A DNA stretch of 63,016 nt, filler included, from Asterionella formosa (taxonomy: Eukaryota): assembly GCA_002256025.1 (NCBI GenBank). It is 4 parts of 4 records of this genome, joined end to end, with 100 filler letters (N's around TTAATTAATTAA, not from the genome) between each part and the next. Parts side by side here need not be neighbours in the genome. Positions count along the whole stretch, not along the records: positions 20,594 to 41,076 come from NKIB01003343.1; 3 more parts are not named here. The stretch is one strand, 5' to 3'. Both the position numbers and the translations under genes were made by a program. This document shows positions 5,283 to 59,964 of the stretch, in pieces; position 1 is the first letter of the stretch; every line of letters begins with the position of its first letter. A model generated the notes under the pieces. That model did no database searches. It saw only the letters and a list, made by a program, of their open reading frames with translations, and was not told the DNA's origin.

Positions 5283-6859
5283 TATCACTGTTAAATATGC
5301 AAGGCAGTGGATTAAAATATGCTGATGTTGTTCGTTGTCAATCCGAGCAGTTCTGTTTGCTTTACACTTTTCGTTCCAGTGTATAATAATGAATAAGCCC
5401 TTACGATTTTTTATTTGTCACCATCATCAGTTACCGGTACACCACCAGCATAGCTATTAACTCTCTGTACATACCGGTACGATAACTCGATGATATGCAT
5501 ACTGGGACGAGGTAACAATTACCACTGCTCCCAGTACGATGCTTGATTGTTTGCAGTTTGCATTAGTATCATATGCATGAGAATACATAGACAACGTATA
5601 GGGGTATGTATAATATACCAGATCATATTCCGAATGTACAAGTGCGTCATTGACCTGATATGATATGGCATGATGTACCAGTAGTCTACCTAATATGTGG
5701 TTACCAGTATGTATTTGTACTGGCACGAGACTATTGGTACAAGGAAGGTCTGGTACTGACGGTAGTAGCACAACTTTAATGTGCACCTTTTGTTCAGTTT
5801 CGACTCTTGTTCTCTCCTGATCATGATTCATACCACCATGCCTGCCAGGTGAGATCAAGTCCTTATTATTTTTTGCCTCTTGACCAAACAGACAAATCTC
5901 CAGTTTGTAACCTAACCACAGACAATGGCATTCAATTCCCAAATTCTGTTCTCAAGCTGGCTGGCTTCTCTTTGGTTGGATGACCCTTGGATGATGGCAT
6001 TGAAGGCTGGTATCATACAAAATACCAGAGGCCTTTTGCAAGTCAACAATCAAGAAAAAGAAAGCCCCCCATTCTATGATGCCAATCCAGACGCCATGAA
6101 AAATTTTACTTTCAAGAAATTCAGAATTGCAAATTTGAATGTGCTCTCTCAAAACTGTCTCAATATTGGATGCATTCTGTATTGGATGTGGATATCAACA
6201 CAAAATCAGATTCACAATGTATCCGATTTAGTGATATTATCTAAATGGCTCAACGTTATAATACAATACTGTCACTGCTGGTATACATAGCTAGTACATT
6301 TAGACTAGCTATGATAGTGTCTATGTAATTTATGTGCAATGTATACACAATTTCACATCACATCAATAATACCTACCATGAGTGCCTCGTGAAAGCCCAA
6401 CTAGTTGTCATCTTGGAATGAAAATGAAGGCCTCTCCCTAGAGACTAATCATGATGAGTCGGTTTCAGTATTGATGGGTAACGAAAAATGCAATTATGCT
6501 GGCGAAGTTGACAAATTTTAAATGCTACACCAAGACCAAAGCTTTCATTAATGAGTACAACAGGGTCTCCCACAAATCTTCTCTCAATCATCCCGACAAG
6601 CCATCCAAAATCAAGAAAATTGTCCCATGGGGGGGGGGGGGGAAATTCTTACATAATCTGCATCTTTTGATTCTTCGATTTTGGTGGATGAATTATGGAT
6701 CAAGATCAATTTTGATAAGATTGTCGCTCAAAATGCTGCTTCTTGTGGACTTAATTTTTTGCATGATCAGTTGTATGCTGCTCAACTTGAGTGTAAAGAA
6801 GTAAGTCATAGAGTGTTAGCCGCAACACTTGATTCAAAAAAGCAGAATAGTAAATCAAT

Positions 6860-7770
6860 AATTCTTATAGGGCATTAGTACTAGCCTAGCCACAGGATTG
6901 TATTCATTGCGCTCCATGGCCCATAGGGATTGGGGCTGGCTGTGGATGGTGTGATTTGGTAGTCACTCCTCCCTTATGTAGGAGTCGTGTAAAAAAATTG
7001 TGTTTTCTATGATCTCTTCCTGGTTTAGAGATACCGCTGGTTGTTTACACGGGTCTGAAACCTGGATGTTCTCACTGAGTTGTGTTCCTTTTTCTTCGTC
7101 TATGTTCTGCTGGGGCATATTTGTTGGCTGCTCGCACTTAAAGCGTTTATTGAGGTGAAGTGTGTTGTTAGTGTTACTTGGCATGTGACCGCGAATTTTC
7201 TAGATGCAACGAGCGCTTTTTGGTCGTTCTCGATTTCAAAAGTATTTTCAATACTTTCCCAAAAATATGTTTGTCTCGGTTGCATATTTCGCTTTGGAGC
7301 ATATATATCCTTTGTGCCGATTGGGTTATTTCGGCATTTTTTCGTTTAAATTCCTCATTTCTGGCTTTCCAGGCACTATGTGTTACTTTCCAAAAGTTAC
7401 GAGATCGCCTTTCTGGTACTAGTACATTTCTTGCCCTGTTGTCCTCCTCTTGTGGGGAATTCTCCTGAGGAAGTACAAAAGGCATCATTTGTCCATTTAC
7501 TGCTCAAGTATCCCTTAAGCAAATTCAAGTTGATGATCCACTGCTTCCCATAGTTTTTATTTTGTGAATTCCAGCGTGTGGGGAGGGAATTTAGGTATAA
7601 AACCGCCTGCTTCTCCTGCATGAATAAATTTCGCAGCTCTATCAGTAATATTATCCTGGTTTCTTGCTTCATTATATAATGAAACAATGAGTCGCTAATT
7701 CCGATTCATTTTTTCGCTGAGACATATTCTTTGATCTCAACTGCCAAAGAACAGGACATGGCATGCAAAA
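6860..7770 (-). mobile_element. 5'-truncated, decayed 3' fragment of a non-LTR retrotransposon related to the element at 51-55 kb
   Basis: Peptides LLKGYLSSKW and NFWKVTHSAWKARNEEF match TLRGHLGKGW and QFWKVIIGAWNDRNEVL of the 51.8-52.3 kb ORF. The DNA motif TTGCGCTCCATGGCCCAT is shared (6907-6924 vs 51401-51418). Confidence 0.8.
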
Positions 7771-8119
7771 GGAAGATTAACACAGTACAATTAAGCAGAC
7801 TTGTTAGTAGACACATTAAAGCACATTTTTTCATTGTTTAATGTAGAGTTTTCAAAATCCATATTATCAATGAAGCATCTTTGTTGGCTGAGCATCATTG
7901 AACCTCACATATTGCCCTAGTGACTCAAAACTGAGATGTGCCACAATGTTATTCTCCTTTTTGGAGTGGCTAAAAATAGTCTACAACGATAGCTAACTCT
8001 ACTGGAGAAAGACTTGTTGAAGGCAGTTTTTGTCGTAGATTAATGAAGAGATGTCCAAATCAAGAGAGGTTTTATTGTTGTTTGGACTGTTCCAAGGCTC
8101 CGAGGGACAAAGCAATTAT

Positions 8120-8810
8120 TTTACACTGTTACAACAGTAAACAATAGGAAAAAATAGTAAGGAGATTGCAGTTATCAATATATTACTAGCAACATTTCCA
8201 TGGAATGATTTGTCATCGTGGAGTACTATGAAGAAATATTTCTACACAGTTGCCAATTTAAAAAAAGGAAAAAATAGTAAGGAGATTACCGTTATCAATA
8301 TATTACTAGCAATATTTCCAAAGCCAGATTTTTCATTACCGAATACTATGAAGAAACGATTCTACACAGCTGTGACAAAAAACAATAGGAAAAACGAGTA
8401 AGGAGATTGCCGTTATCAATAAATGAATATTAAGTAAAGGTTATAGTACGCTATTTCTAAAGAACTCGACAATTGTGGACGAGGTTGTGAAGTCTCACTT
8501 GGCCCCCCAGAGGGCCTTACACAGCCTGCTTGTTGTATGACATACCACCCGGAGCCCAAGGGACTACTACATAAACAAAGCAGGTGGAGAATGCGGAAAT
8601 CGAACCCGCCACCTCGGCAGGTGAGCTAACTAACTAAGCTATTCCCCAGATTACCGTTATCACTATATTACTAGTTATATTTTAATAGAGAGATTTGTCA
8701 TTGTAGAATGCTACGAATAAAATTCTACAACAATAGGAAAAATAGTAAGGAGATTGTCGTTACCAATATATAACTATGTTATAGTTACGATCTAAGCACG
8801 AGTACAGCAT
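8120..8810. repeat. Degenerate tandem array of about 120-bp units, interrupted by a SINE-like insertion
   Basis: AAAAATAGTAAGGAGATTRCMGTTATCAATATATTACTAG-like motif recurs near 8150, 8271, 8390 (resuming at 8648) and 8737. Confidence 0.85.
8421..8647 (-). mobile_element. tRNA(Ala-like)-derived SINE, family A, copy 1
   Basis: The minus strand begins GGGGAATAGCTTAGTTAG...GGCGGGTTCGATTTCCGCATTCTCCA (A-box-like, B box, tRNA-Ala-type ends). It is flanked by a 17-bp direct repeat, AGATTGCCGTTATCAAT (8404-8420) / AGATTACCGTTATCACT (8648-8664). Confidence 0.8.
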
Positions 8811-20493: not shown

Positions 20494-20593
20494 NNNNNNN
20501 NNNNNNNNNNNNNNNNNNNNNNNNNNNNNNNNNNNNNTTAATTAATTAANNNNNNNNNNNNNNNNNNNNNNNNNNNNNNNNNNNNNNNNNNNN
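20494..20593. other. Scaffold gap with an artificial TTAATTAATTAA linker
   Basis: N44-TTAATTAATTAA-N44. The same construct occurs at 41077-41176 and 42437-42536. Confidence 0.97.
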
Positions 20594-28462: not shown

Positions 28463-29019
28463 AGATTTTACAACGCCCTTTTTCATTACTCATATGTTGA
28501 ATGCATGCATCTTATAATGAACTTGTTACTAAGCTGTACAAGGGATTTAGAGAGTGATGGCCAGAATACATATGCTGACAAAGTGGGACAGCTTGTCAGT
28601 AACACAAATTCAAAATCACTCATCCTGACTGGATCAAAACTCGAGATGTTGCACAATTGTTTAGAGTTTTCAACATAGTTTTGATAGCAAACAAAATATC
28701 CTGAGCATTTGTTACACAAATCAAAAATAAAATGTTAACATTGCATTAACCCCTGTGAAGACATATCCTTTATGCTAGAAGCTGCAATGTATCAGCATAA
28801 CCATAAGCATTTGCCACACAAATCCACAGTAAAAATAGTAACATGGATAGTTTAGCCACAACAACATAACCCATTGCTATAATTGTACTATCAGGTACTC
28901 CCTCGGTCTGGTACATCAAAAATTCAAATTTCTCCAGGGCCATTTTGACTTGCACAATTTTCTCCGGCTCAATTGCCCTATTGTGCGGCTTGCTCTAGCT
29001 AAGCTACAAATCCATGTAT

Positions 29020-29399
29020 GAAATATAAAAAGATAATATGTTTTATAGCCCATTTGTACTCCCCTTCCTTATTTCTAGGCAAGTATTTCATTGTGTTACC
29101 TGCTGACAAGATCTGTGCTTCCCTAGTTTTGTTGACATAGGTGAGCCCCCAACCACCCTTGTTGCAAAAGGTGATTTTCTTAGCCGCAGCATTAGGGGAA
29201 ACTCCTACCGCCTAGGAAGGCGGCACAAGCTGCTTGTAGGGGGGCAACCCATTATTTCTTGCACACCTGGCAAGACCGTGCGATATGGTAAGGAGTGTGG
29301 GAGTCGAACCCAACAATTGCTTCTCAAAACAATTGCGGGAACCGGCCTCATAACCTCAGATCAAAGACAATGTGCTAAACCATTGAGCCATCATTCCCT
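29020..29399 (-). mobile_element. tRNA-derived SINE, family B, copy 1 (apparently full length)
   Basis: Minus-strand head AGGGAATGATGGCTCAATGGTTTAGCAC...TGGGTTCGACTCCCACACTCCT. The body is homologous to the 31.2-kb and 46.4-kb copies. Flanking direct repeat CAAATCCATGTAT (29007-29019) / CAGATCCATGTAT (29400-29412). Confidence 0.8.
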
Positions 29400-29953
29400 C
29401 AGATCCATGTATATAATATCCATAGAACGATTAAAATTGGCAACTACATTAAAAAAAGAGTTTTTCGGCTTTTTCGATTTTCACTTTGTTAAAGTGAGCT
29501 CATCTATGTAGTTATGACTCAGAGTCAAACAAGTCAAATGATTCAAATGAGTTAACTTTGATTTACCAAGCTCTCATCAACCACACATTTTACGTTGTTA
29601 CTCCGCCTATAATGAGCCAGTCAATATAAGCTATTTCGGAAGACCGATAGTTTGAAAATGAATGATCATGGTTAAAAACCTATGATCAGTAAGTGTGAGA
29701 TAGACATGGGTCTATCTATGATTGTATGTTTCTAGAAATGCAAACAGCATTTGGAGAATAGCTCGTTTGTTTGTTCAAACAGAACAACCTAAACTAGTTG
29801 ATTAAACTCAAAATAAGAATATAGAAATGGAAAGAGAAACGAACATCTCTATCTATACTAGTCTTCTTTGTCTAACAATATACTAGATCTATCAAAAAGG
29901 TAATACTTTAACACGTTTATAAACGGACTTAAGTGCTTAACATGTCTACATAA

Positions 29954-31170: not shown

Positions 31171-31475
31171 GGGGAATGGCTTCGTGCGTCTGGTTAGGAG
31201 ATTTCTCTTCAAACATAAATTTGTGGGCTAATATCTTGCTCCTTTTGAGGAGAAATTGTTGTTTTCAAATCCCACACTCTCCTTGCCGTCATACACAGTC
31301 TTGCCTGATATGAAAGAAAAGTGGGCTCCTGTACCGGTGTAAACCGCTTGTGCCGCATTCTTTGGCAGTCAAAGTTTCCCACGACGCAGCAGCTAAGGCA
31401 ACCACTTCTTGCAGATGGTGGGAGATGTGGACCCACCAATGCTAACAAACTAGGAGAGTACAGGTCGTGCCAGCA
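31171..31475 (+). mobile_element. tRNA-derived SINE, family B, copy 2 (more diverged)
   Basis: Begins GGGGAATGGCT. Colinear matches to the reverse complement of 29100-29399: AATTGTTG..TCCCACACTC, GTCTTGCC, GCTTGTGCCGC, AGTTTCCC, GCTAAG, AACAAA(A)CTAGG. Confidence 0.7.
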
Positions 31476-34048
31476 AAGAAGCCGTGCTGTGAAAAGCCGA
31501 TTTTCAAAAATGAGGACTTAACAGGCGCATTATTCATTCCTTAATTTAGCTCTACAAGAAAAAGAACAATAGTGCAAATAGGAAGAAAGGCTTTAATACC
31601 AATTGCACACTTGAGACAGGAAAACGAAGAATCATGTGATTCTCCGTCACACACAGGGGAAATACTATTCCAGGAATGGGGAAGAAATTTTGTCACAGGA
31701 AGAGGAGGGTTTTGCAGGAAAACAGTTAAAGGACGAAGAACCAATGGCAAGATAGCAACATACCTAACAATTACAAGAACTCGCCCAGGGTATTTGGTAC
31801 CAATCCAAACTATCCAAAATTCCCAATAACTGTCAGTGCAATCATTTCTGTTTTTGGCGACAATTGGTTCAGTAATATAAAGGATTTCTGGATTGTGACT
31901 AGACATCATGAGAGGTGTGGTTAGAGAAATGTTGTTTTTGATGTTGAAGCATGCATATGCTTGCACTCTTCACGTATTATTCATTTTTTAATCAGCTGGA
32001 TAACTGAATGTGAGGGAGTAGATTCGATTTTCAATATCGTCCAGTATTTTTCAAGAGCTAACCAAGTTGGATAGCTCTTGAAAACTCCGATATAATTTAT
32101 CTTCACTCTGTATGAGACTGAATTTTTTGCCATGCACACATTATATTGAGTTCGACAAAAGATGAACTCGCAATCAATTGTGAACACCTCTGCAATGTTC
32201 TGGTTGTCACTATTGAAATCGAAGATTACTGATAAAATATAGCTTTGCCTTTTTCGCTCGTATCTATGCCAGAAACGGGCAGTGGATTGACTATTAAATA
32301 TGATATAGTGCACAGATCTGTGAAGAATGCCTCAAAAATAATCTCTTTTTGAGAGATCTTCAAGCAGAATATGAATGAAATTAGCTGTTATCTGTTGCCT
32401 ATTATCGAAAAACAGCTGACAACACTTTTCTAGGTTTCTGATTTGCTGCTATGAGCTGGTAATCCAACTAGACATAAATTGAACACATTCATCTCTATTC
32501 TTCTATGAAGAAGATTTCCTCACTATTTTAAACAATGACAAGCCTCTGAAGCATCAGGCAGAACCAATTATTCAATTCTCTTTTATGTCAAGCAAAAATC
32601 CTCCATCTTAATTATCATTATATATTCAGTTTTTAAGATACAGCAAAGGAGGGACACCATTGAATGCGAAGCGATGTGTTTGATGAATGTTGCTATAGGC
32701 ACCATATGATTATATGAACCTAGTGTTACCGTGGTTGTCTCCATAATCAAAATTTACTAAGAATGGAGAATTTTTTTGGAAAGTGATTTCTTTTTCTCAG
32801 TTCCATGTATATCAATTGCGGCTTCCTTGTCAGCATAATTTGAGCCTAGCCGGCTGGCTGCTGCTGACTGTCCTAAGAATATCATCATCAGTGTTTAGGA
32901 TCAAACCATGTTCTTCAGTAGTAATGAATGAACTGATCATTATAGCAGCGCCATCATCCTCTGGGTAGTAGTGTACTCTTGCCATGGTTGGGACCTGTCC
33001 GCACTTTTTTATTCAACAAAATTTGTTGAAAATTGCTTCATTCTGTCCAGCGATCATAAAAGCTTGCTCTTCATTGTTCTTTTGCAAACTACAACTGCCT
33101 TAAGATCTCCAAGTTTTGTTAATTTTACTGTTACCATAGTGACACATCTTCGTGCTGGCAATAGTGATTCCAATATCAATTGATACATGTGTATTTTGAT
33201 TTCAGTTTAATTAACAAACCCGGCTGGCTTTTGGTTTCGAATCATATTTAGCTTCAGTGTGATTTAGCCTAAAATATTTAAATAAACCTTTTTTCTAATT
33301 CTGCCACTTACTTCCATATGTTTTTCTTCAAGTTTTACCGTTTTGCTTAAAGTTGTTTTGCGTGAACTAGGTTTACTTAAACTTTCAATTTTGCTTAATT
33401 TTCGACTACATCATTTCAACCAAACTGCCATCACAATCACATATCTAGCTACAGAACACTCCTGTGCACCTTTGCTACTTATGCTAACCCACCTCTAGCT
33501 ATATTGCACACCGGTAGTAGCATATTAAACCTAGCTGGATCACTCATGCACAGGGTGCCCGAGGTATCACTTGTAGCCGCTAGTGGAAAGTAATTATTTA
33601 TCACATATTATGCAATGTTTTTGTCTTTATAAATCGGTGCTGTGTAGTCGTTCTGAGCGGCTGGAGAAAATTGCATCATGTCATCTCAGACTTGACCATG
33701 ACGAAAATACAGAAAAAAAAACTCCATAAAAAGGAGAACGTCGTTTTGCTGTTTGAAAACTATTTCAATCGCGATACAGACAACACAATCATAAAAGAAA
33801 TTTCCTAATAACACTAATATTGACAACGAAAATTGAATCGCCGAATGTTACGAACAGCTTTGACACTTTTGAAAATAGATACATAAGACTACGGCTACAA
33901 CAATAACCTGAATAATTGTAGCAGCAGATGTGAAATAAGTTATTTATCCACAGAGAATTCATTGATGGCGAATTGACAATTTGAATAGTGGTAGAAGCCG
34001 AGAAATGTAAAGTATGCTGTGAGAGTCCCAACTACCAGTGATATCCTA

Positions 34049-34299
34049 TAAAAGATGTCAATTAAATTTTATGGTACGTTAAAGCTATCCAATAATCGCA
34101 TGTGCCCAAATGAATGGAAATAATTTGTACCTTTTTCGTCCGTATGGTACAACGGGACCTGTCTCTTGATAACCGGACCTGTCTCTTTGTCCACCTCACC
34201 CCTGGAACCCTAGGGACTACATAAAAGAAAGACAGATGGAGAATGCAGGAATCGAACTCGCCACCTCATAAGGTGTGCTAATCAATCAATTCATTCCCC
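34049..34299 (-). mobile_element. tRNA-derived SINE, family A, copy 3 (apparently full length)
   Basis: Minus-strand head GGGGAATG...CACCTTATGAGGTGGCGAGTTCGATTCCTGCATTCTCCA. Flanking 16-bp direct repeat TACCAGTGATATCCTA (34033-34048) / TACCGGTAATATCCTA (34300-34315). Confidence 0.8.
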
Positions 34300-35429
34300 T
34301 ACCGGTAATATCCTAAAGTAGTGTGCAGCAGCCCCTTCGTACATCAAATGAAATGCTACAGTAGCGAAACGGTATAGCTGGTACATTGTTGACATATCGG
34401 TAACAAGTAGACCGATGCCGGTAAATGCATCACTTGTTTCTTTCCTTACGCCCATGGTAATGCAGCAGCTATGTACATGTGTTGGCCGGCAGGCGCAAAT
34501 CATTAGTAGTTACAAAATTTGATTTCCCAAAAGCTCCAGAGTCAGGAAATATCTGTCCGTTCTTGGGGGAATAACACGATGAATCAAATTTACCGCAACT
34601 TGCTGATGAGGTCTCGAAGTTGTCAGGACTACATGCATTCTACAATAGGGATTCCATTGTTATCATGGGCACTAAAATTAAATCCAGTTTTCTTGACAAC
34701 TAAGCAATATTGTGACTCTATAAGTTAAGATCATTCTGTGGTATTAAATTGCACCCAACACCTCGGAGCATTCAACTCTGGCTTGAAGTATTCAACAATG
34801 AAAAACTGGTGGAAGTTTACGGTTGCTTGTGTCAGCCATGCTTCTCATGACCACCATCAGAGTAATACTTTTGTCAAGTCTCATAATTAAAATAGACTGC
34901 ATTCATCCACCTTTCAATTATTGATATGGATCATATCTTGTTTAATCGAAACATTGAAAGAAAACTTCTAATTGATAGCTATGTGTGTCATTATAAATTG
35001 ATTTCCGAAGAGCAGGGATTTCTTTGTCACTCCGCATCCTCCAACTCCTTGATTTCCAAACCCAAATTTGAATCTAATGTGGGAACCACATGTACATATA
35101 CATATACATGTACATGCACATACTCATACTCATAAATTTTCTCCACTAAGCGAGATTTAAATTCCGAATTTCTTGAAAGCTTTCATGGCATCTGAGATGG
35201 ATTTAAAGAATGGTGGGGGAAATCCTATTCTTTCGATAAATACATATTGATCAAACGATAAACGATGTCATTCATAATATAAAATGAGTGATTTGTGATC
35301 TTAGAAAGATTACATTTCTGTTTGTAGACGACGTATAATCTACTTAGGATACTATACTATTTCTATGATCTGCTCCACTTCATTGTATTAATTCTTCTGT
35401 TTTTTAGTTGATGGGGTGAAATTCTCCAC

Positions 35430-36208: not shown

Positions 36209-36504
36209 GGAGTAGTGAGGAAAACCAAGAAGTCCCAGCATCCCTGTTACTATCACCTCAGATCATCCTGCAATTGAGGATGGCCTATTAAAATTGTCCA
36301 TTCTAAACAGCATATCAAGGAAAACAAACAAACCCTCCTTAGTAGTACTACCATCTCAGAACATCCCGCAATTGCGCATTACCAATTAAAATTGTCCTAT
36401 TCTTTATGAGTAGCGAGGAAAATCATTAAGTCCCTGCATCCTTGGCACAATCACCTCAGAGTATCCTGACATTTTGCATTGCCTATTTAAATTTTCCTAT
36501 TCTA
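36209..36504. repeat. Three degenerate tandem units of about 100 bp abutting the YeeE/YedE stop codon
   Basis: CTCAGA..ATCC..AATT...TTAAAATTGTCC(T)ATTCT-like sequence recurs three times, and GAGTAGYGAGGAAAA twice (36209, 36408). Confidence 0.7.
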
Positions 36505-37597: not shown

Positions 37598-39281
37598 GTT
37601 TGAGTTTCCGTTCTTGCGTCGTTTTCTTTTCTTTGCTTTGTGATCCTTGTTGTCTGTGATGCTTCGTAAAAATCACAGATGATGCTTTTGTGGCCTTCCT
37701 TTGACGATGATGAGGATGACGTCAAAAAAGCCTATGCCAGTGGTAGAATTTGTATCTGTATGTACCAGTAAACAATAGCTACGATAAAAGCCGGAGAAAT
37801 TTTTTACCCGATACGGCATGCAAACCAGTCAGTACATGGTCCTGGTAATTAACGAAGAGAGGCCGTTCTTTCAATTTCTCCGCCCATGTTCTTACAGTCG
37901 CATGCATACCGGTATACATACTGTAAGGCATGCTGTACAGTCCTGTAAATGCATGGAATCTATTCTGAATTTCTATGCGTCATCGCAGGGAGTTCTGGGA
38001 AAGTCCGAATATTGCGAATATTTGTCCGTAAATATATATTACGGTACCTGGTACCATGATACCGTAGATGTAGGAAAGATAGTAAGTATACTAGTTCTAC
38101 ACAATTAGCCACGTTTCGATAAATCGAAAAAAGCAAGGACCCCTCGCCTATAGGTGGTACCAGGTACCAGGTACCAGCACCGCACATCGCAAGCAGCTAC
38201 CGGTATGTACGTGTATATATTAAGGTTCCTGCAATTGACACACTAGCTCGAGGTAGGGTTTAAAAAATAATATTGAGTCAGACTAATCAGACACGTACTT
38301 TTCACCTCTAAAATAGATCTGTAGAACGCTCAACGGAGCGTTCACAATTACGCAACTTTTCCATATATGCTTTCGTACAGTCTTTTGGTGTACATAAGTC
38401 AACTCAATATTTCGACAGGATATAAGATAGGATCTGGTGAGAAAGTGGGCACACTTCGAAATTAAAAAAAATTTTATTATGTGTATTATAACATAAATTA
38501 CTGTACTGATAACCCCAAAATTTGGTCAACACAAACAAAAATTTTATACTGTTAGAAATAACAGTGCAAACTACAAAACAGTAAATTTTGTATTTTTTGT
38601 ACTTTTTGGTGCCAGTTAAATCTTTGCAGGCCAAAATTTAGTAGATGCAAATGTTCCAAAAGAAATGGCAACATTGCAGGGAGGTTGAGGTACTTGAAAT
38701 TGCTTCGAAGGTTAGTTGTTGAGTTATCATACATGGGGAACCACTGGTAGCAACAGCGGGAAACCCACCACTAACGGAGAGCAAACAAGATCTACTAAGA
38801 AAGGCAGCAGGGGCAAGCAAACTGACTCCATGATGCCAAAAATGGCCACACACGTCTGCAAATAGAAAACATCTAATTTGTGTGATGCATCTTTTAATGG
38901 GGATCATATGATCATATAAATTCGATTTATCATCAAATATAAATAATATTTATCGTCATGTAGAATATTGTATGTATATATATATCGATACATGCATTTT
39001 TGTATGTATACCACCATCACTGGCTGCAAACATCAAAAACCGCTCAATCTGAACTTGAATCATTCGTGTTGCATGAGAAAGACAGTCGTACATGGGTTTA
39101 TGTACATATCTGCTGTAGCAATCTATAGTTTAGAAGACATGATAGATACTCATATATGTATACAGACAAGGTGACGACATTGGTATCGTCTATTGGTGAT
39201 AGAGGGGATGCAATAACACGTTGTTCTCGTACATACAAGGTGACATTGATATCCATTGTCACCTCTTACTTAGGTTAGACT

Positions 39282-39586
39282 AAAAGTAAGATCAAACGAG
39301 CTAAAAGTTGTTACCTGTGATCTTATTTATTGGTAATCATATCTAACCAGAAAGTATGATCTGTAATTTTTTAGTAGTAAGATATATTCATGTTGAAAGT
39401 AAGATAAAAAAGCTAAAAATTGTTATCTGTGATCTTATTTATTGACAATCGTATCTAGCCAAAGTATGATCTGTAATTTTTAGTAGTAAGATATATTCAT
39501 GTTAAAATTAAGATCAAAAAAGCTAAAAATTGTCATTTGTGATCCTATTTATTGGCAATCATTTCTAACCAGGAGGTATGATCTGT
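39282..39586. repeat. Tandem repeat of about 118 bp, about 2.6 copies
   Basis: TAAGAT..AGCTAAAA.TTGT..TGTGATC.TATTTATTG..AATC..TCTA.CC..GTATGATCTGT recurs at about 39286, 39400 and 39508. Confidence 0.9.
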
Positions 39587-40773: not shown

Positions 40774-42620
40774 GACAAGAATCGAAAAGGGGAACATTGG
40801 CTGTTTAACCACACAAAATGTAGAAACATAAAAAAATGATTTCGTGATATAACAGTAAAATTACAATCCATTTCAACCTATTTTTAACAGCTATTTCGAT
40901 TAGAGTTACCATTATATAAGGCAGGATAGGTATATGATAAAAGAATATGATACATCATAGGATAATGTTTTGATAATTATATGGTGGTTTGATTATTATG
41001 GTAAGCTTAGCCTGTTCACTTTCATAGTATGCATTTATCATACATATACATCTGAGCCGCGAAATACGCCACTTTTNNNNNNNNNNNNNNNNNNNNNNNN
41101 NNNNNNNNNNNNNNNNNNNNTTAATTAATTAANNNNNNNNNNNNNNNNNNNNNNNNNNNNNNNNNNNNNNNNNNNNGTTACTTCCATAAGATTGACGACC
41201 ATCAGGGACTGGCGATCGATGTTGATTGCGTGGGGGTCCCGCCGACTCCATTTGAGTGACAGCGAGCTTCTCGTTCGTTCTATTGGAGTTCTTTCAGTAC
41301 ACGTGCTCTTCCTTTCTCGGTATTACAGACCTTGCATCTCCTCTGCGAAAAGGGCGTTGGGTAAGGAATTGGATTGGCAGCGGCTGAGTTTTATAAAGGT
41401 TGATTAACTCAATGGATCTGCTTAGCCTGAAAAATGCCGAGCGGTTTTGTCACAGAGGATGTTTAATACCTGGCTTCTTGGCATATAATGAGGAGGCTAG
41501 TGTACCTACCTGGTACAGCGTGTGGCTGGGGTTGCTTGCTTTGATGCTAGTGTACCGGTAGTATCGAACATGGTACCCTGGTACTCCGGGGTAGCAAATG
41601 ATACATTTACTACCGGTATAGAGAATTTGCGTAGAGGACTATCTTATATATGTATGCCTGTCGTCCATAATTACCAGGTACTGAAAACATACTACATAGC
41701 GGTACTGGTATATTTCTGCACATTGGAAATGCCTGCGTATGTTGTGCCGTCATTAAACGATGATCAGCAGGCTGTCCACCATCAGGCGATGCATGGTGCC
41801 GGTGGGATGCATGCATTAATTAAACAAACGAACGAATTAATGAAATTGCTTTGCGGTAATCCAGACCGGAATATGCATGAATGTTTAAAAAAATATATTT
41901 ACTCTACGGTACCTGGTACTGTATTACCGGCACATACCAAAGTCGTTTACGGTACCGGGTACATTTCCTCTGTTCGGGTACCCAGTGCCACGTAAGCACA
42001 AGGATGCGAACGCACCAAATTCTGATTTGTGTGTGCGGAGTAGTAAAAAGCATGCACAAGACACAATTAATCATCATCAGACATCTACCGGACACTTACG
42101 CTGATTTTCGTAGAAATGTTCGGACAGTAGGCCGGTTTTTCAACCGAAGTCTGAACTTCCGTTCATTCCCATTTTATAATTTAACACGGTATATCTAGTA
42201 CTACTATGTTGAACTTGGAGTGAAGTTTGATCATTTGAGGGAAATATCGGACGAACGGCCGTTTTTTTCTGGTAGCTGTTTTCTCGTGGAATTTTACATA
42301 TGTAGTAGATGTCTTGATGGAATCTGTGTTTATGCACTTCGATGCAAATTACGTAAGTATCATGTGTGAATGGGCAATTGTCAACTATCGTACTGGTATC
42401 CTAGGAACCAGCGTCACCAAGCAAAAAGGCAAGGACNNNNNNNNNNNNNNNNNNNNNNNNNNNNNNNNNNNNNNNNNNNNTTAATTAATTAANNNNNNNN
42501 NNNNNNNNNNNNNNNNNNNNNNNNNNNNNNNNNNNNAACAAATGGCTTGCTAGAGAGCATGAACGACAGAAATGCAAAACATCAATAAAATAGAGCTTCA
42601 TTTAGCAGCCATTGAACACC

Positions 42621-46371: not shown

Positions 46372-46702
46372 CTTATAATGCACTTTCTAGGACCAGAGAG
46401 TTACACATGGAATTCCAAAGCACAGCCTGCCACCAACAAGACCATGTGCTTCCTTAGTTTTGATAGTGTAGTAGGTGAGTCCCCAACCATCTTTTGTGAA
46501 AGGTGATTGTCATAGCTACAGCATTACTAAGTGAAACTCTGACCACCTAGGAAGGTGCCACACTGTTTGTATGGGGGCAGCCCGCTTTTCCTTGCACAAC
46601 AGGCAATACCGTGCAGGACAATGAGGAGTGTGGGAGTTCAACCCAACAATTGCTTCACAACTTCAAATCAAAGGCATGTGCCCAACCAACTGAGCCATTC
46701 CC
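46372..46702 (-). mobile_element. tRNA-derived SINE, family B, copy 3
   Basis: Minus-strand head GGGAATGGCTCAGTTGGTTGGGCAC...TGGGTTGAACTCCCACACTCCT. The body aligns with 29100-29330 (TAGGTGAG.CCCCAACCA, AAAGGTGATT, CCTAGGAAGG, CTTGCACA, ACCGTGC). Confidence 0.8.
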
Positions 46703-50415: not shown

Positions 50416-51076
50416 NNNNNNNNNNNNNNNNNNNNNNNNNNNNNNNNNNNNNNNNNNNNNNNNNNNNNNNNNNNNNNNNNNNNNNNNNNNNNNNNNNNNN
50501 NNNNNNNNNNNNNNNNNNNNNNNNNNNNNNNNNNNNNNNNNNNNNNNNNNNNNNNNNNNNNNNNNNNNNNNNNNNNNNNNNNNNNNNNNNNNNNNNNNNN
50601 NNNNNNNNNNNNNNNNNNNNNNNNNNNNNNNNNNNNNNNNNNNNNNNNNNNNNNNNNNNNNNNNNNNNNNNNNNNNNNNNNNNNNNNNNNNNNNNNNNNN
50701 NNNNNNNNNNNNNNNNNNNNNNNNNNNNNNNNNNNNNNNNNNNNNNNNNNNNNNNNNNNNNNNNNNNNNNNNNNNNNNNNNNNNNNNNNNNNNNNNNNNN
50801 NNNNNNNNNNNNNNNNNNNNNNNNNNNNNNNNNNNNNNNNNNNNNNNNNNNNNNNNNNNNNNNNNNNNNNNNNNNNNNNNNNNNNNNNNNNNNNNNNNNN
50901 NNNNNNNNNNNNNNNNNNNNNNNNNNNNNNNNNNNNNNNNNNNNNNNNNNNNNNNNNNNNNNNNNNNNNNNNNNNNNNNNNNNNNNNNNNNNNNNNNNNN
51001 NNNNNNNNNNNNNNNNNNNNNNNNNNNNNNNNNNNNNNNNNNNNNNNNNNNNNNNNNNNNNNNNNNNNNNNNNNNN
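50416..51076. other. Assembly gap (661 N)
   Basis: Run of N. Confidence 0.99.
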
Positions 51077-51344: not shown

Positions 51345-54300
51345 TTTAATCATTTTTATAGCGCATTGTTCTTACCAGTCTATTCCTAGATTTGTCTTCG
51401 TTGCGCTCCATGGCCCATCATAAGAGGTGGGGTGATGGAGGTTTTGGTATATTTGTCACTTCCTCTTGTGGAAGTATTGGAAAAAATTGTGGTACCTTTG
51501 TTCTTGGAACTCTTCTCTTGGTCTGCACTCCTCATGTCATTTGGAGAATTGGTTATTTATGTTGGGTTGTGTGTATAATCGCCCATTTATCGCACTTCCT
51601 GTGGTTTTTCTTGTTGTGTTACGCCTAAATTGATTGTTGTCCTGCTTCTGCAGGGCTGCTCCCTTGGAAGCGGATAAAATATATTTTGCTCTATCTAAAA
51701 GTCTCAGTTTTTTGCTAAGCCTCGCCGTCAATAACTCCTATATCTTTGTTCTGAATAGACGAACATCTCTCATGGATATTTCTCCTTTTCTGCTGTAGTA
51801 CCTCTTTATTTTTCATCATGTTCCCATTGGGAAATCGTGTTGCTTTTACCATTATGAAGCACCTCGTTTCTATCGTTCCATGCTCCAATGATTACTTTCC
51901 AAAATTGATGTATTGCCGTTGTAGCCCAACTGTTGCGCTGCGCTTCTGTTCTTGGTTGCCGATCTTCCTCTGAATGGTAAACCGCGCTTTTCCATCCCTT
52001 GCCAAGATGCCCCCTCAGCGTTAAAATTAGGCCCAATTGGTTTTGCTGTTCTATTGCCTTTGATATATTTCCTTTCATTGTTTCCGAAGTTCCTGGGTCG
52101 AAGTTGATTTTAAATTTCTCCTTGCGTTGTGATAGTATGTGTTTTATGTACTGCAGCCATGGAGATGAGACGAATTTTCCCACCTGAACTTGCTGCGCTC
52201 TGCAGGACATTGCTGATAATCCTGTCTCTCGCTTGTAGATATTCTTTGGACTTTGACACTCGATAATATATTCATTTGTTTCCCTATTTCCACACATTGT
52301 GGAAAATTTCATTTCCTTGGAAGCCATCCATGTAGGTATTTAGTGAGAAATATTTAGTCTATGTATGTCTGATTTTTGTATGCTCTAGCAAGATTGTCCC
52401 AATCCACTAATGTTGCTTTTGAGCTTCCATGGTTTTTCCCAAAATAGATATTGTAGTTTTTTAAATTTATACTCTGTCTCATCCGCTCTGCTGCCGAAGT
52501 GTGTATACGCTGATTGTTGATAATAAGACTTACCTGCATTGTAGGAAAATGGCTAGAGTTATTTCTTGGCCCGCCTTTGGCAACCGAAGGACATCTTTCA
52601 AGAAAATTCGATGCCATTTTGTCGGCCGTAATGATCTTTGCGCCTCCAATGTCAATTTCTTAGCTGTTTTGTCTGTATCCTGACTCCTGACGAGCCTTGA
52701 TCCAATTCAGTGTAACTGTTACTGGTATGGTTTTGATGATCCGCGAAATTAGAGATACAATCATGTCTGCATTGGCTGGTGGTCTCCCAGTATGTAAACT
52801 CCAGGATAAAAATCTGAATCTCGACAGGAGGGCAGTTGCACTGACTGTCAGTCCATATCTGTACCTCTGAAGTCATATCTATCTCAAAATAATTTATGAA
52901 TGCCTTTTAAATTTTACGAACCGAGGCTAGTACTAGTCCAAATAATTACGCTCTGGTTGAGCTGTTTTGAGACGAATCGCCATAGACCGGTCCTGCGCAT
53001 GCCGCTGTTTGAGTGGGAATGGAGTTTCGAGAGCTCTGATTATGCTGCGTCCACGCAAAGGAGCATCTAGAGTCCGAGTCCATGGACCCATCTGCAGCCA
53101 CCTTAATTTTTAGTCCTAGCTGTAGATGACGTCGCAGCCTCGTTTCTGACGCTGGCTGGGCTCATGACTACATCCTTAAACAATCTTTGTTCGTGTAGTG
53201 GAAGTGATCGAATTGTATTAGTACTCCATGTACGTACTCATGGCCTTTGCATTTACTTCCATAAATTAAAATCAAGTGCGAAATAGGCAACACTCCCATT
53301 GTCATGTAAATCACATGGTAAACTATTCTTCGGTTAGTTGAGCCCCCCTGTTGCCCTGTTTGATCAAATCGCATAGTAGCTATGAATTACTTGCGACTTA
53401 CTTGTGTACACCTTCCAATGTTTTGTATTCTTATCCAAAACCCATAATTTTTCCTTCCAATTGGATATATGTTGTTGACCAGTCTTGGGTCGGTGGTGTT
53501 GTCCATCTTCCCAGTGGTTGTCGTAACATCGCTCAGCTTTCTTATCTTAGAGCCATTAGTAAGAAAGTATCTTTGCATTGATAGCTTCCAATCCTATTTT
53601 GCTGGTTGGGACTAGGTTTAGGTTGGTTAGGCCATTCCCATTTTGTTGTTCTGTGTGTGATTCTTTCGCATACTAGAATTTCTGGTCTGAGTTGTTTCCC
53701 ATCTGCTGTTGCAATGTCTGCAACTAACGAAACTTGAAGATACATTCTGCATGTGTTTAGATGAAATAGTCTGTGTTTGCTCAAACCTCTTTCTGCTAGA
53801 ATTTGCATGATCATTGAGTCTCGATAACATTAAAGACCTGGACTCCAGGCATTGCTGATTTCAATCTGAAAGTTAAATGTTTCCCCAAAAATTTTCTCAT
53901 GTTCGTAAGCCATGTTTCTGTCAAGTAAGGTATGGCCACCTTTCCATTTGATAGAATGTGCTCTGCTCTCCCCGATTCCAATTGAATAATTCTTAGTGAG
54001 ATATCCATCAGTTTCGCAACTTCATCTTGTGCATATTTGTGATATAGGAAATTTTCCCTCGCTCTTATGCCTTGTTCAATTGTGAAATCCACCATTTTTA
54101 GACCTCCTGATGTGATTGGACCACCATATACTACTGCTTTCGGAAAATTCTGACTAAAGCCCATCTTGCCAAGGCATGATCTTCTTGCTTTCTTTTGTAT
54201 TCCTTCTAACTGAGATTGGGTCATGCTCGTCACTGGTACTGAGTACCTGCGTCATTTGGGCTGCCCAGATCAAGTGATCTGCTTGACTGGCATCTCTTCT

Positions 54301-55060
54301 CCACATTTTATCGGGCATCGTTTTGATTGCTTGATTATTCTCTGTGCTTCCTCTCCTTCCCATGTTCCCCTTGGATTGGAGAACATCCCCAACGATTTTG
54401 TACTTTTTTCCGGAGATTTGTATTCTATTGTTGTTGAACTTTTGTTCCAGACCAACCTCATAGTCCTCTGGGATTGGATTTGATGTGCTTTGTTTTAAAA
54501 CTGTGAGTCTTGGATACCCTAGCTGATCCCAATGATGCCAGCAGTGCATCGTTGTGATTGTAGCATTTCGATAGTTCCACTGCGCCGCCTGAGGAGAAAA
54601 GCAGATTTTCCCAAAGCTTTGCACATTCCATGAGTGTATTCAGCATTGTGATGATATCCATAGGTGCATTTTTTCGTCATTGACAACTTTCCTTGTATCA
54701 TCTACAAATTGGCAGGATTCCCGCTGTGAGGCGAAGTTCCTCCATCACTTCGTCCTCTTCTACACCGTATTGATGCATTTTATATCTCCGCTTCCAATCC
54801 TGATGATTATACGCCGCTTTACTCAGTTGCTTGGACCAGGAGTGTTTCCCCATTGGTTTCCTTACTGCCTTCTCGCCTATTATTATCGCCCTGCCTGCCA
54901 ATGTCGCGATCCAATTTTTCCCATCCAGCCTGTATTTTTTCCCTTGTTGCACTTAACCCTGCTAGTGCATCTATCCTTGCAACAATCTTGTGAATTCTCC
55001 ATTATTTTTTGCTGCCTTAAGATATTTGCTGCATTCCTCTGGATTTGTAGACTGCTGCAT
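51345..55060 (-). mobile_element. Decayed non-LTR retrotransposon with RT and RNase H (Ambal-like, tentative)
   Basis: Minus-strand fragments in order: KHSWSKQL, FVDDT (54708-54694), LWENLLFSSGGAVELSKC, KMGFSQNFPKAVVYGG..GGL, LNTCRMYLQV..ADIATADG, RNase H AADGS / SSTRA*LFG / IWTDSQ, and C-terminal LRGHLGKGW..WNDRNEVLH. Many stops and frameshifts. Confidence 0.85.
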
Positions 55061-57136
55061 TAATCATAAGCATATCGTATGATCTATTGATTTGAAACTA
55101 ATTGATATATATATATATATGATGAGGAGTGTATACTAAATGTGCTTCGTTATTAATGTTACAAATGCAATCGATTACATATTACATAATATGAATATGA
55201 TCTATGGTAATTATACGTAAGATGAATGCAATAATCGTCTGTGAATAGATTTTCCATTAGATCTAACGTTTTACTCAGCATACGTTAAAAAACTGATTGA
55301 TTATTAAAATATTTTGATATGTTGATGATAATTTTGATATATCAATGGCCATGTCTGTATGATCAATCAAATTTGTACATTGGGTTAGTAGCATACACAT
55401 GTTAGGTTATGCGTATATCATAAGAACTCGAATATATTAGTTACCAAATCTAATCGATTAATCCAAATTGTTGATATATTGATCAAATTTTGTGTTATGT
55501 TGATGATAGTTTTGGTACATCAATGACCGTGTCAGTGTGGTAAATCAAATTTGTTTGTCAGATTACTTTCTTACATACGTCAGGTAACACATAGATAGAA
55601 GTCATATATATCAGTTATCAAATATAATCTGCTAACCAAATGTTTTGATATATTGATATGCTACTTGATTGATCAATAGCTGTTGCTCTTTGATCAATTA
55701 TTGTTTTAGCGAAGGTTATGACTTAAAACAGATCACCTTACGTGTATGTAAACCTTGTATAGCTTAAATACTATACGTAGTGTAGCTTGTCCCACACATA
55801 TGTTCTCGCCACTCCGAAGTGTAAAATATTTATGAGGGTAGCAGAACCATTTTTCAATCAATAGCTGATTCCAATGTCGTACAGCAACAATGGTTGTCGA
55901 AATGAGTCCAACGATGTTGATAAACTTCTCCGTTTTGGGGGCGTTTCAAATGATCCCTGTATTTTTAATAATATTGTTGGTGCTGGTATTGATACAGAAG
56001 AAAAGAGGAACAAGCTTCTGTGCCCATTGCGGCCACAATTGAGAAGCATCGCCAAAATTGGGAAACTTTTTTTCCTGATGAGCCGATGGAATTCGTCATA
56101 CCTGTCATTCCAAATAAAGATCACATTCTCCGTTTATGCATTGACACAGGCAAGTGAAAACGAAATAGTTGATGCCAGTTCATCTTCTCCCAATACCATC
56201 CAAGAAGTAAAGATTGTGTTGCTTGTATGCCCATGGTAGATCTTGTTTCTACTTCCTCAGAGCGTGTAATTGAGTCTATCGAATCTGATAGTAGACTTAA
56301 TATAAAATCTCCCCCTTCCAAAGCAAAAGCAAAATGCAAAATTAAAGGCAACTCCAGACATGGTTGCCAATCCGAAAGATGCAGTCCATGACTTCTCATC
56401 AAAGATTTCCGAAATTGTAGGAGTGATTGGAAAGTAAATAAAGAACAGGTCGAGGAGGAAAGTGATTTGTCCCATTTATCCAGTAAGGAGTTGGAAATAT
56501 TGAAACAGAACATGGTCACCGGTCTGGATGTAGTTCATGGGTGCATTTGGTGGCATGTTGTTGTCTTTCTGATGTAGTCTAAAATCTCGAGGAACGTGAG
56601 TTTTCCAGAAAATCATCGCTGGTCCTATATGATTCCGAGATCTCCTTGAAGTTTCAAATGATGTTTTGTTAAACAAGCCAGACTCTAGGACCACAAAATA
56701 ATTGTTGAGAACAAAATCCAGGATACCTGTCATCTAGTCTCTTCTCCTTGCCTTTGTCATCATGATCAAAGTATCTAATCAATAAGATTCGTTCCTTACT
56801 GTTCCGTTGTCTCTTGAACAGACATGAAATACGCCATAGAAACACGTTTTTCCTGATTGAAAAATCTGCGATCGGTATCCCCTTCACAACCAAGGTTGTT
56901 CCATTCCTTGTAGCACTCGGAACATTTGCCATTCCAGATAACAAGTGATATATGTCGCTATCGATAGCGTGCAAATGTCAAGTTGTCAAGAAAAACGTGA
57001 CTGTTACAGAACAAGGAAGCAGAAAGGGATAATGGTTTGTCAACTATAGGATTATACAGTGGGCAACAAGTGCTGGATCGGAAGCGATGCAGCACCGACA
57101 TAACTCAGTAATAGACATGAGATTGGTAGCGCAAAG

Positions 57137-57407
57137 CTACAGTTTCATAGTACCAGCTTAGTAATAGGTACAGTTTCACTGTAACCACCACTTCATGTTC
57201 CGACCGGGTATTGGAAGAAGGGGAAGAAGGGAATGCTGGTAGGGCAAACCTACAGTTTTACAGTACCAGCGTAGTAATAGGTACAGTTTCACAGTAGCCA
57301 CGTCATGTTCCGACCGTGTATTGAGACAAGGGGAAGAAGGGACTGCTGTTAGGGCAAACCTACAGTTTCACAGTACCAGCGTAGTAATAGGTACAGTTTC
57401 ACAGTAA
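57137..57407. repeat. Tandem repeat of about 112 bp with internal TACAGTTTCACAGTA subrepeats, about 2.4 copies
   Basis: CTACAGTTT.A.AGTACCAGC.TAGTAATAGGTACAGTTTCAC at about 57137, 57250 and 57360. Confidence 0.9.
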
Positions 57408-59964
57408 CGGGTATTCGAATACCTGTTAAGTCTTGAATATTTTATCTAATCATACATACTTGCTGGTAGGGTATTAAATGTTCCTTCGAAAAAGTTACTA
57501 GACATACAGAGATGTATGTTATACACACTTTTTGAAGATGTTGAAATGTTGAGATATTGTTAAAAAATTCATGCCACATAACAAACTGATAAGGGAATGG
57601 TGATAGAGAGCCTTCTACCGGTATCAAACCAATCGGTGAGAAGAGGTAAGTTATATGATTGTTTTGCTTCTCAACTGTGGCGATTAGAACGACGTGAAGC
57701 TACTATGGAGAGATTGTTTATGTCATCAGTTAGTGGCACATGTGTGGCTGGAGATGCTTTAATTGTTACAACACTTTTGCTAACATTAATATTTCTCCTC
57801 AAAATCATACAGGAACCTTGGAGAATGTGGCTTGCTACCATTCTTAATGGAAGCAACAATCAACCATGAGAGCACATTTAAGTTATATGCACAATCTTGC
57901 CTGCTCATACGGAAATTGGAGTGATGGATTGTCCATGTGATCGTTTCGTTGCACATATCTTTGTTTAGATGCCTTGCTTACTTGATGCAACAGTTTTGCT
58001 AAGATTGTTGTTATGATGTCGTACAATAACATTGGAGAATGTGACTTGCAGCCATTCGCAATGGTAGAGGTTCGAATAAAGCATCATCAGTTTTGTTTAC
58101 TCACTCATTTCGTTTTGAAGAGGCAATGATCTAAACATAGCTACCGGAAGTGAAAATTAATGTATTGAAGACGACTGTGTGCTCATTCTGATAGAGGATG
58201 CACATCAGTGGAAAGTATGGGTGACCAGAAGTAGAATGTTTGAGTATTAAATAGCAATCCATTTAATTCGATTTGTGTTCATCATTGATCGAACATGAGA
58301 ATAGGTTTGATCAATGAGTGAAATAATTCAGATCAGTAGTAATGATCGTTAGATCGAAAGCTGAAAATTCAATTTGATATTAGCATTCCAAAGGTTAGAC
58401 CGAATGAATATAGGATTTGATCTCACGATTACTATCTTAAGATTGAACACCAAAACGTTTGTTGATTTCAATCATTTTTTTGTATGATCAATCAGTATTT
58501 CTGTATGATCAATCAGTTTTTTTTGCATGATGATCAATCAAAATATAATAAGTCATACTGAGAATATTTGGGGCAGTGGGTCTTACAGCAAAACTGTTAG
58601 GCCTATCGGTTTTTTATTTACAGACGGCACCATTGCAGATCATTATGGCCACTGAACACGATTCCATGTTATTTCAGCCAGATGATGATAGCGGATGGTC
58701 ATGTGGACCATTTACAATTGCGAAAGTGTTGGAAACTCTATTTAAATTAGAAAGTAATGGCAAAACCAAATTTCTTGGCAAGCGGGCACAATTCCGTTTG
58801 GAGACGGAGTCCTGGAAAATTTTAAAACGTCAGGTGGTAGCAACAGATGGAACAGACGATTTGTTATCTGTAACATCTGACCCACAGACCAAGTCAACAT
58901 ACTTTCATCTTGGAACAGTTTGGTCTTATGTGAAAACGACAAATTCTCGTGAGGATATGTTTCAGTTGGAAAAAATTGTTCTTCAATTTTGTATCGACAA
59001 CATTTTGAGCTCCTATTTAGATTTAAAAATCTTGAACGAAGTATTTGGACGACTTTCTTGCAATTCATCTTTCAAGAAGGATGATGTTGTCTACGTGAAA
59101 TCTATGATGCAACAAATGAATGAAGAATTTTTCCCTTCATATGGTATAGTCATGCACCTCTCGGCCAAATTTCTGGACGCATACTAAAAATTGACAAAAA
59201 GTTGAAAAAATTATTTGTAACTGATGATAGCCTTTCTGGAATCAAATGGAAAACGTCAACAAATTCATATCGAACTGCAGTTGAAAAGTAGAGAAGAAAA
59301 ATTTCGGACGAAACGAGAAGGACCATCTTAGGTTCCTTGGGAGTGAAAAAGAACAAATAATGGACCATTAGTATCATCCAATGTCAACATTTGTTAAGAC
59401 ATCTTAGTTTGTGAAAACCTCCTAATAGCTAACTTAACTAGTATGTAAAAATATATTATCATTATCATTTATATTATTTGATGCACTACCGCAGTACATA
59501 TTTTCATTATGTATTCCAGGAACTCGATGTTCTTGCATGCAATGTCGACAGTGACCATATGCATAAAAAACACGGTTGCTACAATTTCGATTGTGAGATC
59601 CAGGTGGGGATTTGTTCTTCCGAAATTTGTAGTTACACAGGTAATACCATTGATATGTCCGCAAAGACATTGCAAATTTCAAATGTTGACCAAGTCAGGA
59701 TATGAACAGGATAGAATGAAAAATAGTTAATAAGAACAGATTTGGCATCACTTCGAAAATGATGTGCTGAACAGTGCAGTGTCGTGAAATTATCACTCCA
59801 GCGTAGTAGTAAAAATGGAGGAATACCGCTACATATATTGTACAGTCACCACTACTTGTAGTATAGAGCAGCGTCAATGTTTTCTTAACATCTATGATAT
59901 GGTTTGCATTGTAGAAGTCTCACTAACTATATTTTTTGTGTAACTAAGTATGCATTGGATTCTA

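Follow-up and report, generated by a model that had tools for sequence, protein, structure and literature searches.

A tRNA-like SINE in Asterionella formosa DNA and the homology between its tail and the 3' end of a non-LTR retrotransposon of the same DNA

Genes, joins and repeats of the window

The window analysed here, that is, the whole stretch of 63,016 nt from the Asterionella formosa assembly GCA_002256025.1, filler included, is eukaryotic DNA. Pfam searches on its ORFs identified a Thf1-like protein, a zuotin-like protein and a PARN/CAF1 nuclease, all of them encoded in long unbroken frames. The closest named relatives of the PARN-like protein were those of pennate diatoms, with Seminavis robusta (46%) and Mayamaea (43%) at the top, followed by Cylindrotheca and Nitzschia, and the proteins of centric diatoms ranked after them at 36–38%. 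The diatom host assumed in an earlier reading of this DNA, made from the sequence alone and called here the sequence-only reading, is therefore supported by the affinities of this neighbouring gene.

Three identical joins, each consisting of 44 N, the linker TTAATTAATTAA and a further 44 N, are located at positions 20494–20593, 41077–41176 and 42437–42536. The linker suggests that the window was stitched from separate contigs, and both order and adjacency across the joins may be artificial. A single run of 661 N (50416–51076) lies ∼270 nt past the 3' end of the LINE copy termed LINE1, and short tandem arrays with periods of ∼100–180 nt occur at 57124–57411 (D6/D9), 39294–39571 (D11/D17), 36248–36497 (D12) and 55294–55657 (D8/D15).

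Self-comparison of the window revealed three copies of a SINE family B, namely B1, B3 (77% identical to B1) and B2 (70%). Two further SINEs, A1 and A3, form a second family. Each of the five starts with a tRNA-like head, which bears box A-like and box B-like motifs. The sequence-only reading had drawn attention to the tail of B1 at 29041–29100, to the similar ends of two LINE copies, LINE1 (51354–51409) and LINE2 (6865–6915), and to 12-mers at 46373 (B3), 8441 (A1) and 34069 (A3), and each of these strings was found in its place. B1, LINE1, LINE2, B3, A1 and A3 all lie on the minus strand, and the strings quoted from the + strand are reverse complements of the 3' ends of these elements.

Within the B family, B3 (46373–46702, minus strand) shares its 77% identity with B1 over the core and carries a different tail, its 3' end being uncertain; searches of B3 against the Rfam tRNA clan gave no match. 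B2 (31171–31549, + strand) is an older copy with a B3-like tail, so that B2 and B3 have in common a tail that is distinct from that of B1. In the second tRNA-like family, A1 (8419–8647, minus strand) is flanked by the repeat TGATAACGGTAATCT/TGATAACGGCAATCT, and the tRNA-like portion of the tmRNA model in Rfam matches its acceptor and T arm with an E-value of 0.015, below gathering. A 120-nt satellite array (8110–8776; D3/D4, with spacings of 120, 121 and 347) is interrupted by A1, and the apparent 15-nt duplication of A1 may partly reflect satellite units. The other member of the family, A3 (34049–34298, minus strand), is bounded by a target-site duplication (TSD) with 15 of 17 positions identical, located at 34032–34048 and 34299–34315.

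The SINE B1 and its copies in other contigs

SINE B1 occupies 380 nt (29020–29399, minus strand) and consists of a tRNA-like head, a core and a LINE-like tail, with B3 and B2 aligning over head and core. The head (29289–29399, minus strand) bears a box A-like motif, TGGCTCAATGG, and a box B, GGTTCGACTCC, both of which were read from the sequence against the standard consensus forms of the Pol III boxes A and B. Its match to tRNA-Sec in Rfam is weak (29289–29400, 21.9 bits, E-value 0.37, below the gathering score), and ARAGORN recognized no tRNA in the SINEs of the window. At the other end of the element, the putatively LINE-derived tail (29027–29105, minus strand) covers the segment 29041–29100 singled out in the sequence-only reading and ends with CTATAAAAC...TCTTTTT, the closing T run being likely a Pol III stop. 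A single 13-nt TSD encloses head, core and tail; on the + strand, its downstream copy (29007–29019) reads CAAATCCATGTAT and its upstream copy (29400–29412) reads CAGATCCATGTAT, with 12 of the 13 positions identical.

The idea that the SINE terminates at the TATAAAA box of the tail was considered and rejected, since similarity within the family continues for ∼14 nt, up to the T run near 29027. The motif shared with the LINE has the same orientation and belongs to the 3' end of the element, but the TATAAAA box does not constitute the last bases of B1. Some features of the head and 5' part of B1 are also worth recording. Compared with B3, there are ∼26 extra nucleotides at 29313–29339, between the anticodon-like region and box B; a 3-nt duplication is found near the 5' end, and other contig copies vary heavily around 29342–29348.

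Contigs of four metagenome-like runs with algal or freshwater labels were aligned on positions 28900–29500 at a likeness of at least 80%; runs sharing a small part of the words (X17–X20), and the coded habitats of the runs, played no part in the evidence. SINE B1 is a very abundant repeat, since 9292 contig pieces from run X1, and 1850, 1743 and 1006 from three further runs, were placed on it at this level, where contig depth does not equal copy number and the contigs may derive from more than one species. Being short and non-coding, with three B and two A copies in 63 kb and many copies among the contigs, B1 has the attributes of a SINE.

The limits of the family unit could be drawn from these copies. 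Among the matches listed, the similarity of other copies to B1 ended at ∼29027 in 19 (X2), 17 (X4) and 12 (X5) contigs, the flanks beyond this position being unrelated, with a consensus agreement of just 0.45–0.47. At the opposite end of B1, the similarity of other copies ceased at ∼29391–29399. From both limits it follows that the tail at 29041–29100 lies inside the family unit. Contigs from other loci also spanned the junction between core and tail (29024–29218, 29039–29209 and 29070–29255). In X1, the summed depth of the tail bins amounted to ∼1/4 of that of the core bins, a difference that fits the existence of several tail subfamilies.

In other contigs, position 28997 is joined to positions 29400–29424, and these joints represent uninterrupted sites of the repeat that hosts B1. 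Such empty sites, which are paralogous and not allelic, confirm the B1 insertion and its TSD. The tail is an integral part of this very abundant SINE: it lies within the duplication, paralogous sites without the insertion occur, and core and tail are connected in contigs of other loci. The host of B1 is itself another high-copy repeat (28921–29004 plus 29404–29487), and both flanks of the insertion appeared at very high contig depth.

The LINE copies, their 3' module and the tail of B1

LINE1 (51348–54735, minus strand) is a 5'-truncated and frameshifted non-LTR copy that retains the end of the reverse transcriptase (RT), the thumb, an RNase H-like region, a C-terminal region and the 3' UTR. 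Its final frame ends at ∼51806, leaving a 3' UTR of ∼460 nt. In tblastn searches, residues 932–1860 of the 1944-aa protein P0006, plus the protein P0001, mapped to 54735–51830, and the window copy is accordingly 5'-truncated, as it corresponds to residues ∼930–1860 of this relative. LINE2 (6856–7395, minus strand) is a short, diverged and likewise 5'-truncated copy of the same LINE group, and all LINE copies seen were truncated or degraded. No TSD was found around the LINEs at k ≥9 in the window, and none that was credible in the two related metagenome loci described below; the viral contigs searched contained neither a LINE relative nor the SINE core.

The protein family of the LINE was approached through P0001, a metagenomic protein of 312 aa that is 73% identical to the product of 53814–54251 (minus strand). 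Its relatives in a representative protein library numbered 1452 at E ≤0.001, many of them of ∼1900–2200 aa, and 15 full-length ones were aligned (A5). P0001 has the motif FVDG where the family consensus of A5 reads GFVDD, which can be read as the putative RT active-site motif. Pfam searches on the 15 relatives, with scores mostly under the gathering scores, detected Exo_endo_phos in 4 (best E-value 2.5e-7), RVT_1 in 3 (best E-value 1.8e-9), zf-RVT in 2, and RNase_H and RVT_3 in one each. In these matches, Exo_endo_phos stands for an endonuclease of the apurinic type and zf-RVT for a zinc-binding domain. The A5 profile matched RT structures of R2 retrotransposons (E-value 1.7e-5), and single-sequence PDB searches with P0110 and P0006 returned no match. 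The identity to P0001, the RVT_1 matches of its relatives and the matches to R2 structures point to an RT of the non-LTR type in LINE1.

As for the other domains, LINE1 positions 52949–53161 aligned to the RNase H region of A5 with an E-value of 6e-4 and a probability of just 28%, and both LINE1 and LINE2 are devoid of the endonuclease part, being 5'-truncated. Among the 21 + 107 ORF pieces of the window, those of the LINE copies gave no Pfam match to RT or RNase H. The designation of the resident element as an RT–RNase H LINE is thus supported at the level of the family, but not by Pfam matches on the window pieces themselves. Ambal, the clade to which the sequence-only reading likened the LINE, is a Repbase class of non-LTR retrotransposons. 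The likeness of the window LINE to this clade is that of a non-LTR element in a diatom, LINE/Ambal being listed in the accessible part of a diatom annotation (PMC12803021), and the comparison is confined to the domain order of distant relatives.

The two window copies are so diverged from each other that blastn detects the tail only. A coding remnant at 7354–7395 in LINE2 is nevertheless collinear with 51863–51904 in LINE1, ∼430–445 nt from the tail in both, and the 3' module, located at 51348–51491 (minus strand) in LINE1 and at 6856–7002 in LINE2, is the best conserved part of the two copies (18/18 nt). In LINE1 this module contains ATGGGCCATGGAGCGCAA and ends with AATGCGCTATAAAAATGATT. With a 150-nt profile, nhmmer recovered it at 51491–51348 in LINE1 (E-value 1.9e-35) and in LINE2 (E-value 1.2e-39). 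A metagenome scan with the 18-mer common to LINE1 and LINE2 yielded 24 loci, two of which, L014 and L019, are true relatives; the other 22 were rejected as chance matches in unrelated, mostly GC-rich DNA. L014 holds the last ∼170–270 nt of the LINE and L019 the last ∼100 nt.

The four LINE ends align over ∼130 nt, and their similarity stops after ...CTATAAAAAYKATT / ...AATGCGCTATAAAAAYKATT (...ATT). This common stop marks the 3' terminus of the LINE, with no poly(A) and no microsatellite, and the module ends within a few bases of the point that corresponds to the end of the SINE family. The placement of the shared motif at the LINE 3' terminus is corroborated by the stop in these four copies, which are truncated, none being full-length. 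Directly upstream of the LINE-tail fragment, L019:4–104 is 93% identical to positions 38853–38953 of the window, where no LINE tail follows; the segment belongs either to a different family of repeats or to a short non-autonomous element that makes use of the LINE tail as well.

A profile of 69 positions was derived from the four LINE 3' ends, two of the window and two of metagenome contigs. In a blind nhmmer scan of both window strands, LINE2 (E-value 2.9e-22) and LINE1 (E-value 2.2e-19) were followed by the tail of B1 as the best non-LINE match, 29086–29035 on the minus strand aligning with profile positions 22–68 (E-value 0.048, 9.9 bits), and the next match had an E-value of 2.6. When tested as a target, the B1 tail scored 10.0 bits, a value reached by none of 3000 random 100-nt segments of the window, 3000 context-preserving shuffles and 3000 mononucleotide shuffles. 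The alignment of the B1 tail with the LINE ends, originally made by eye, is sustained by this profile match and by the 0/9000 controls, the window copy, rather than a genome-wide consensus, scoring better than all shuffles.

Other comparisons gave a similar picture. The 12-mer TTATAGCGCATT with at most one mismatch occurs in the window only in LINE1, LINE2 and B1. With the blastn settings and the E-value cut-off of 0.01 given for bivalve SINE–LINE pairs in the accessible text of their description (PMC11481361), B1 matched L019 over 26 nt (84.6%, E-value 0.006) and LINE1 over 46 nt (73.9%, E-value 0.046), in each case at the 3' ends of both elements. By manual count, ∼35 of 52 aligned positions of the B1 tail are identical to the LINE profile, to which a 5-nt insert has to be added.

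Variants present in other SINE copies were informative with regard to this insert. A C instead of T at 29096 accounted for ∼97% of the X1 depth among the matches listed, and a 5-nt deletion at 29065, which coincides exactly with the insert assigned to B1 by nhmmer in the alignment to the LINE profile, for ∼25% of the depth (at least 54 contigs in X1). Introduced separately into B1, the substitution raised the score to 12.2 bits and the deletion to 17.4 bits; with both, the score doubled from 10.0 bits to 20.0 bits and the match grew to cover profile positions 10–68. Of the 71 possible 5-nt deletions, the observed one scored highest, the runner-up giving 12.9 bits, and 11 of 300 random substitutions equalled 29096C. 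These effects are what one would predict for a SINE tail that originated from the LINE tail and has undergone some decay in B1. The loose-end consensus of the SINE copies among the matches listed reads ...CATTGTGCTCCT, with CATTGTGCTCC standing against CATTGCGCTCC in the LINE, and B1 is more distant from the LINE than other copies of the SINE are.

The data support a derivation of the B1-type tail from the 3' terminal module of the LINE, from which it has diverged while keeping the orientation and running collinearly up to the 3' end. Tail homology with the LINE was observed for B1 and not for B2, B3, A1 and A3, and hence in one of the five whole SINE copies of the window. Neither these four copies nor a tail fragment at 61.6 kb gave any nhmmer match to the LINE-end profile or any blastn match of the tail below an E-value of 0.1. 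The 12-mer of B3 has three mismatches to TTATAGCGCATT, and sites with at most three mismatches number 40 in the window against a chance expectation of 59; the 12-mers of A1 and A3 have four mismatches each by manual count. The shorter echoes that the sequence-only reading had perceived at the ends of B3, A1 and A3 are therefore at chance level, as 12-mer counts, nhmmer and blastn were all negative.

With regard to secondary structure, a consensus stem AGCGCA/UGCGCU closing inner helices is predicted in the four LINE tails, with one compensatory pair, and B1 retains 10 of the 12 predicted pairs of this hairpin. Folding energies compared with those of shuffled sequences indicated no significant stability (z −1.55 to +0.52). 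A hairpin common to the B1 and LINE tails is possible on the basis of these models.

A candidate partnership between SINE and LINE

We consider it probable that B1 belongs to the tRNA-derived SINEs whose 3' tail comes from a LINE, with a core specific to its family, and that its partner is the resident endonuclease–RT–RNase H non-LTR retrotransposon. The tail of B1, ∼60–80 nt long, would descend from the last ∼60 nt of the LINE 3' UTR. Pol III would transcribe the SINE from boxes A and B in the tRNA-like head, and the RNA would end at the T run after the LINE-like box. The LINE RT might then recognize the common 3' module, possibly the hairpin AGCGCA/UGCGCU followed by AUAAAAAU, and, once the LINE endonuclease has nicked the target, copy the SINE in trans through target-primed reverse transcription, a reaction that would yield duplications of 13–17 nt. 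It is because of the tail homology that we infer mobilization of the SINE by the LINE in trans, and recognition of the module by the RT may be deduced likewise. The proposal that the SINEs of this DNA were mobilized by this LINE clade can be retained for the B1 subfamily, whose tail is homologous to the LINE end, but not for B2, B3 and the A family, which lack such a tail.

Alternatively, the module could be a mobile 3' cassette passed on by mosaic evolution, or the LINE could have taken it from the SINE, and the LINE need not then be the enzyme donor of B1. Tails do differ within one SINE family, as between B1 and B2/B3, the module in L019 is joined to the unrelated 100-nt repeat also present at 38853–38953, and shuffling of modules among SINEs and LINEs is described in bivalves in the accessible part of one study (PMC11481361). 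We regard this origin as unlikely, because two very diverged LINE copies keep the module at an equal distance behind the same coding remnant, and because the module is their best conserved part, as expected of a site needed by the LINE's own RT. A composite locus, in which a tail-less SINE would stand beside an independently inserted and heavily 5'-truncated LINE fragment, seems highly improbable. Short 5'-truncated LINE ends do exist, such as those of L019 and L014, but a single TSD encloses the head, core and tail of B1, contigs of other loci bridge core and tail at the three sites given above, and the similarity of 12–19 other contigs per run, among the matches listed, ends at 29027. Chance resemblance of two AT-rich ends, which would agree with the E-value of just 0.048 of the B1 copy as it stands in the blind scan and with the echoes in B3, A1 and A3 being truly at chance level, can hardly account for a match that 0/9000 control sequences attain, that sits at the SINE tail on the correct strand and extends to the profile end, and whose score is doubled by paralog variants, including a deletion that is the best of 71.

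Stringent-type SINE–LINE pairs are known from the eel (UnaSINE1/UnaL2) and from the tortoise (Pol III SINE/CR1). A tRNA-derived SINE with a LINE-derived tail, the reading that we prefer for B1, resembles these pairs in its head–body–tail build, in a tail homologous to the end of the 3' UTR in a LINE from the same genome and in its TSDs. It is unlike them in the diatom host, in the T run that follows the TATAAAA box in place of a microsatellite or poly(A), in a partner LINE with a putative RNase H domain and in the single tail subfamily that matches. According to the accessible text of a study in bivalves, HCD-SINEs pair with Nimb, CR1 and other LINEs through tail homologies of 35–61 bp at 72–95% (PMC11481361), and the homology of B1, of 26–59 nt at 74–85%, is in or near this published range.

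SINE-class repeats have precedents in diatoms, as far as the accessible parts of the sources go. In Phaeodactylum tricornutum, 13 putative SINE copies (1,454 bp) were called the first in a diatom (PMC5859163), SINEs were annotated in Cyclotella cryptica (PMC7466962), and both SINEs and a 'LINE/Ambal' class in Pleurosigma pacificum (PMC12803021), while RTE-like non-LTR elements are reported from Thalassiosira pseudonana and Phaeodactylum (PMC2806351). In those parts of the sources, the diatom SINEs appear as pipeline classifications without tail analysis or partner, whereas B1 is abundant and comes with a TSD, an empty site and a partner tail. Searches of full-text literature, subscription journals, Repbase reports and supplementary tables aside, turned up no account of a SINE–LINE pair in diatoms. 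The arguments seem to us evenly poised as to whether this would be the first sequence-supported SINE–LINE pair of a diatom, in which a tRNA-derived SINE of very high copy number would be amplified, in a freshwater pennate species, by an endonuclease–RT–RNase H LINE via a conserved 3' module of hairpin plus AUAAAAAU and the tail subfamilies would reflect partner switching.

If the reading as a first diatom partnership is true, SINEs would be a major and overlooked force in some diatom genomes. SINEs have long been considered rare or absent in unicellular eukaryotes. On the practical side, a curated repeat family for the masking and annotation of diatom genomes could be gained, along with presence/absence markers for populations of freshwater diatoms and a defined pair for testing template recognition by a LINE with a putative RNase H domain. 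The mechanism is already textbook knowledge, and the value lies in taxonomic breadth and practical annotation, with no new principle.

For the SINEs of the B2/B3 type and those of the A family, a different partner or a far older version may be presumed. Besides the whole copies, the window contains a B1-type tail fragment at 61617–61656 (+ strand), which has the 14-mer TACAAATGGGCTAT together with flanking matches. It constituted the best non-self Smith–Waterman match of the B1 tail, with a score of 45, and carries the 12-mer with two mismatches. The fragment follows a GGGGCTCA such as that of the B core, and is possibly a 5'-truncated and decayed B copy.
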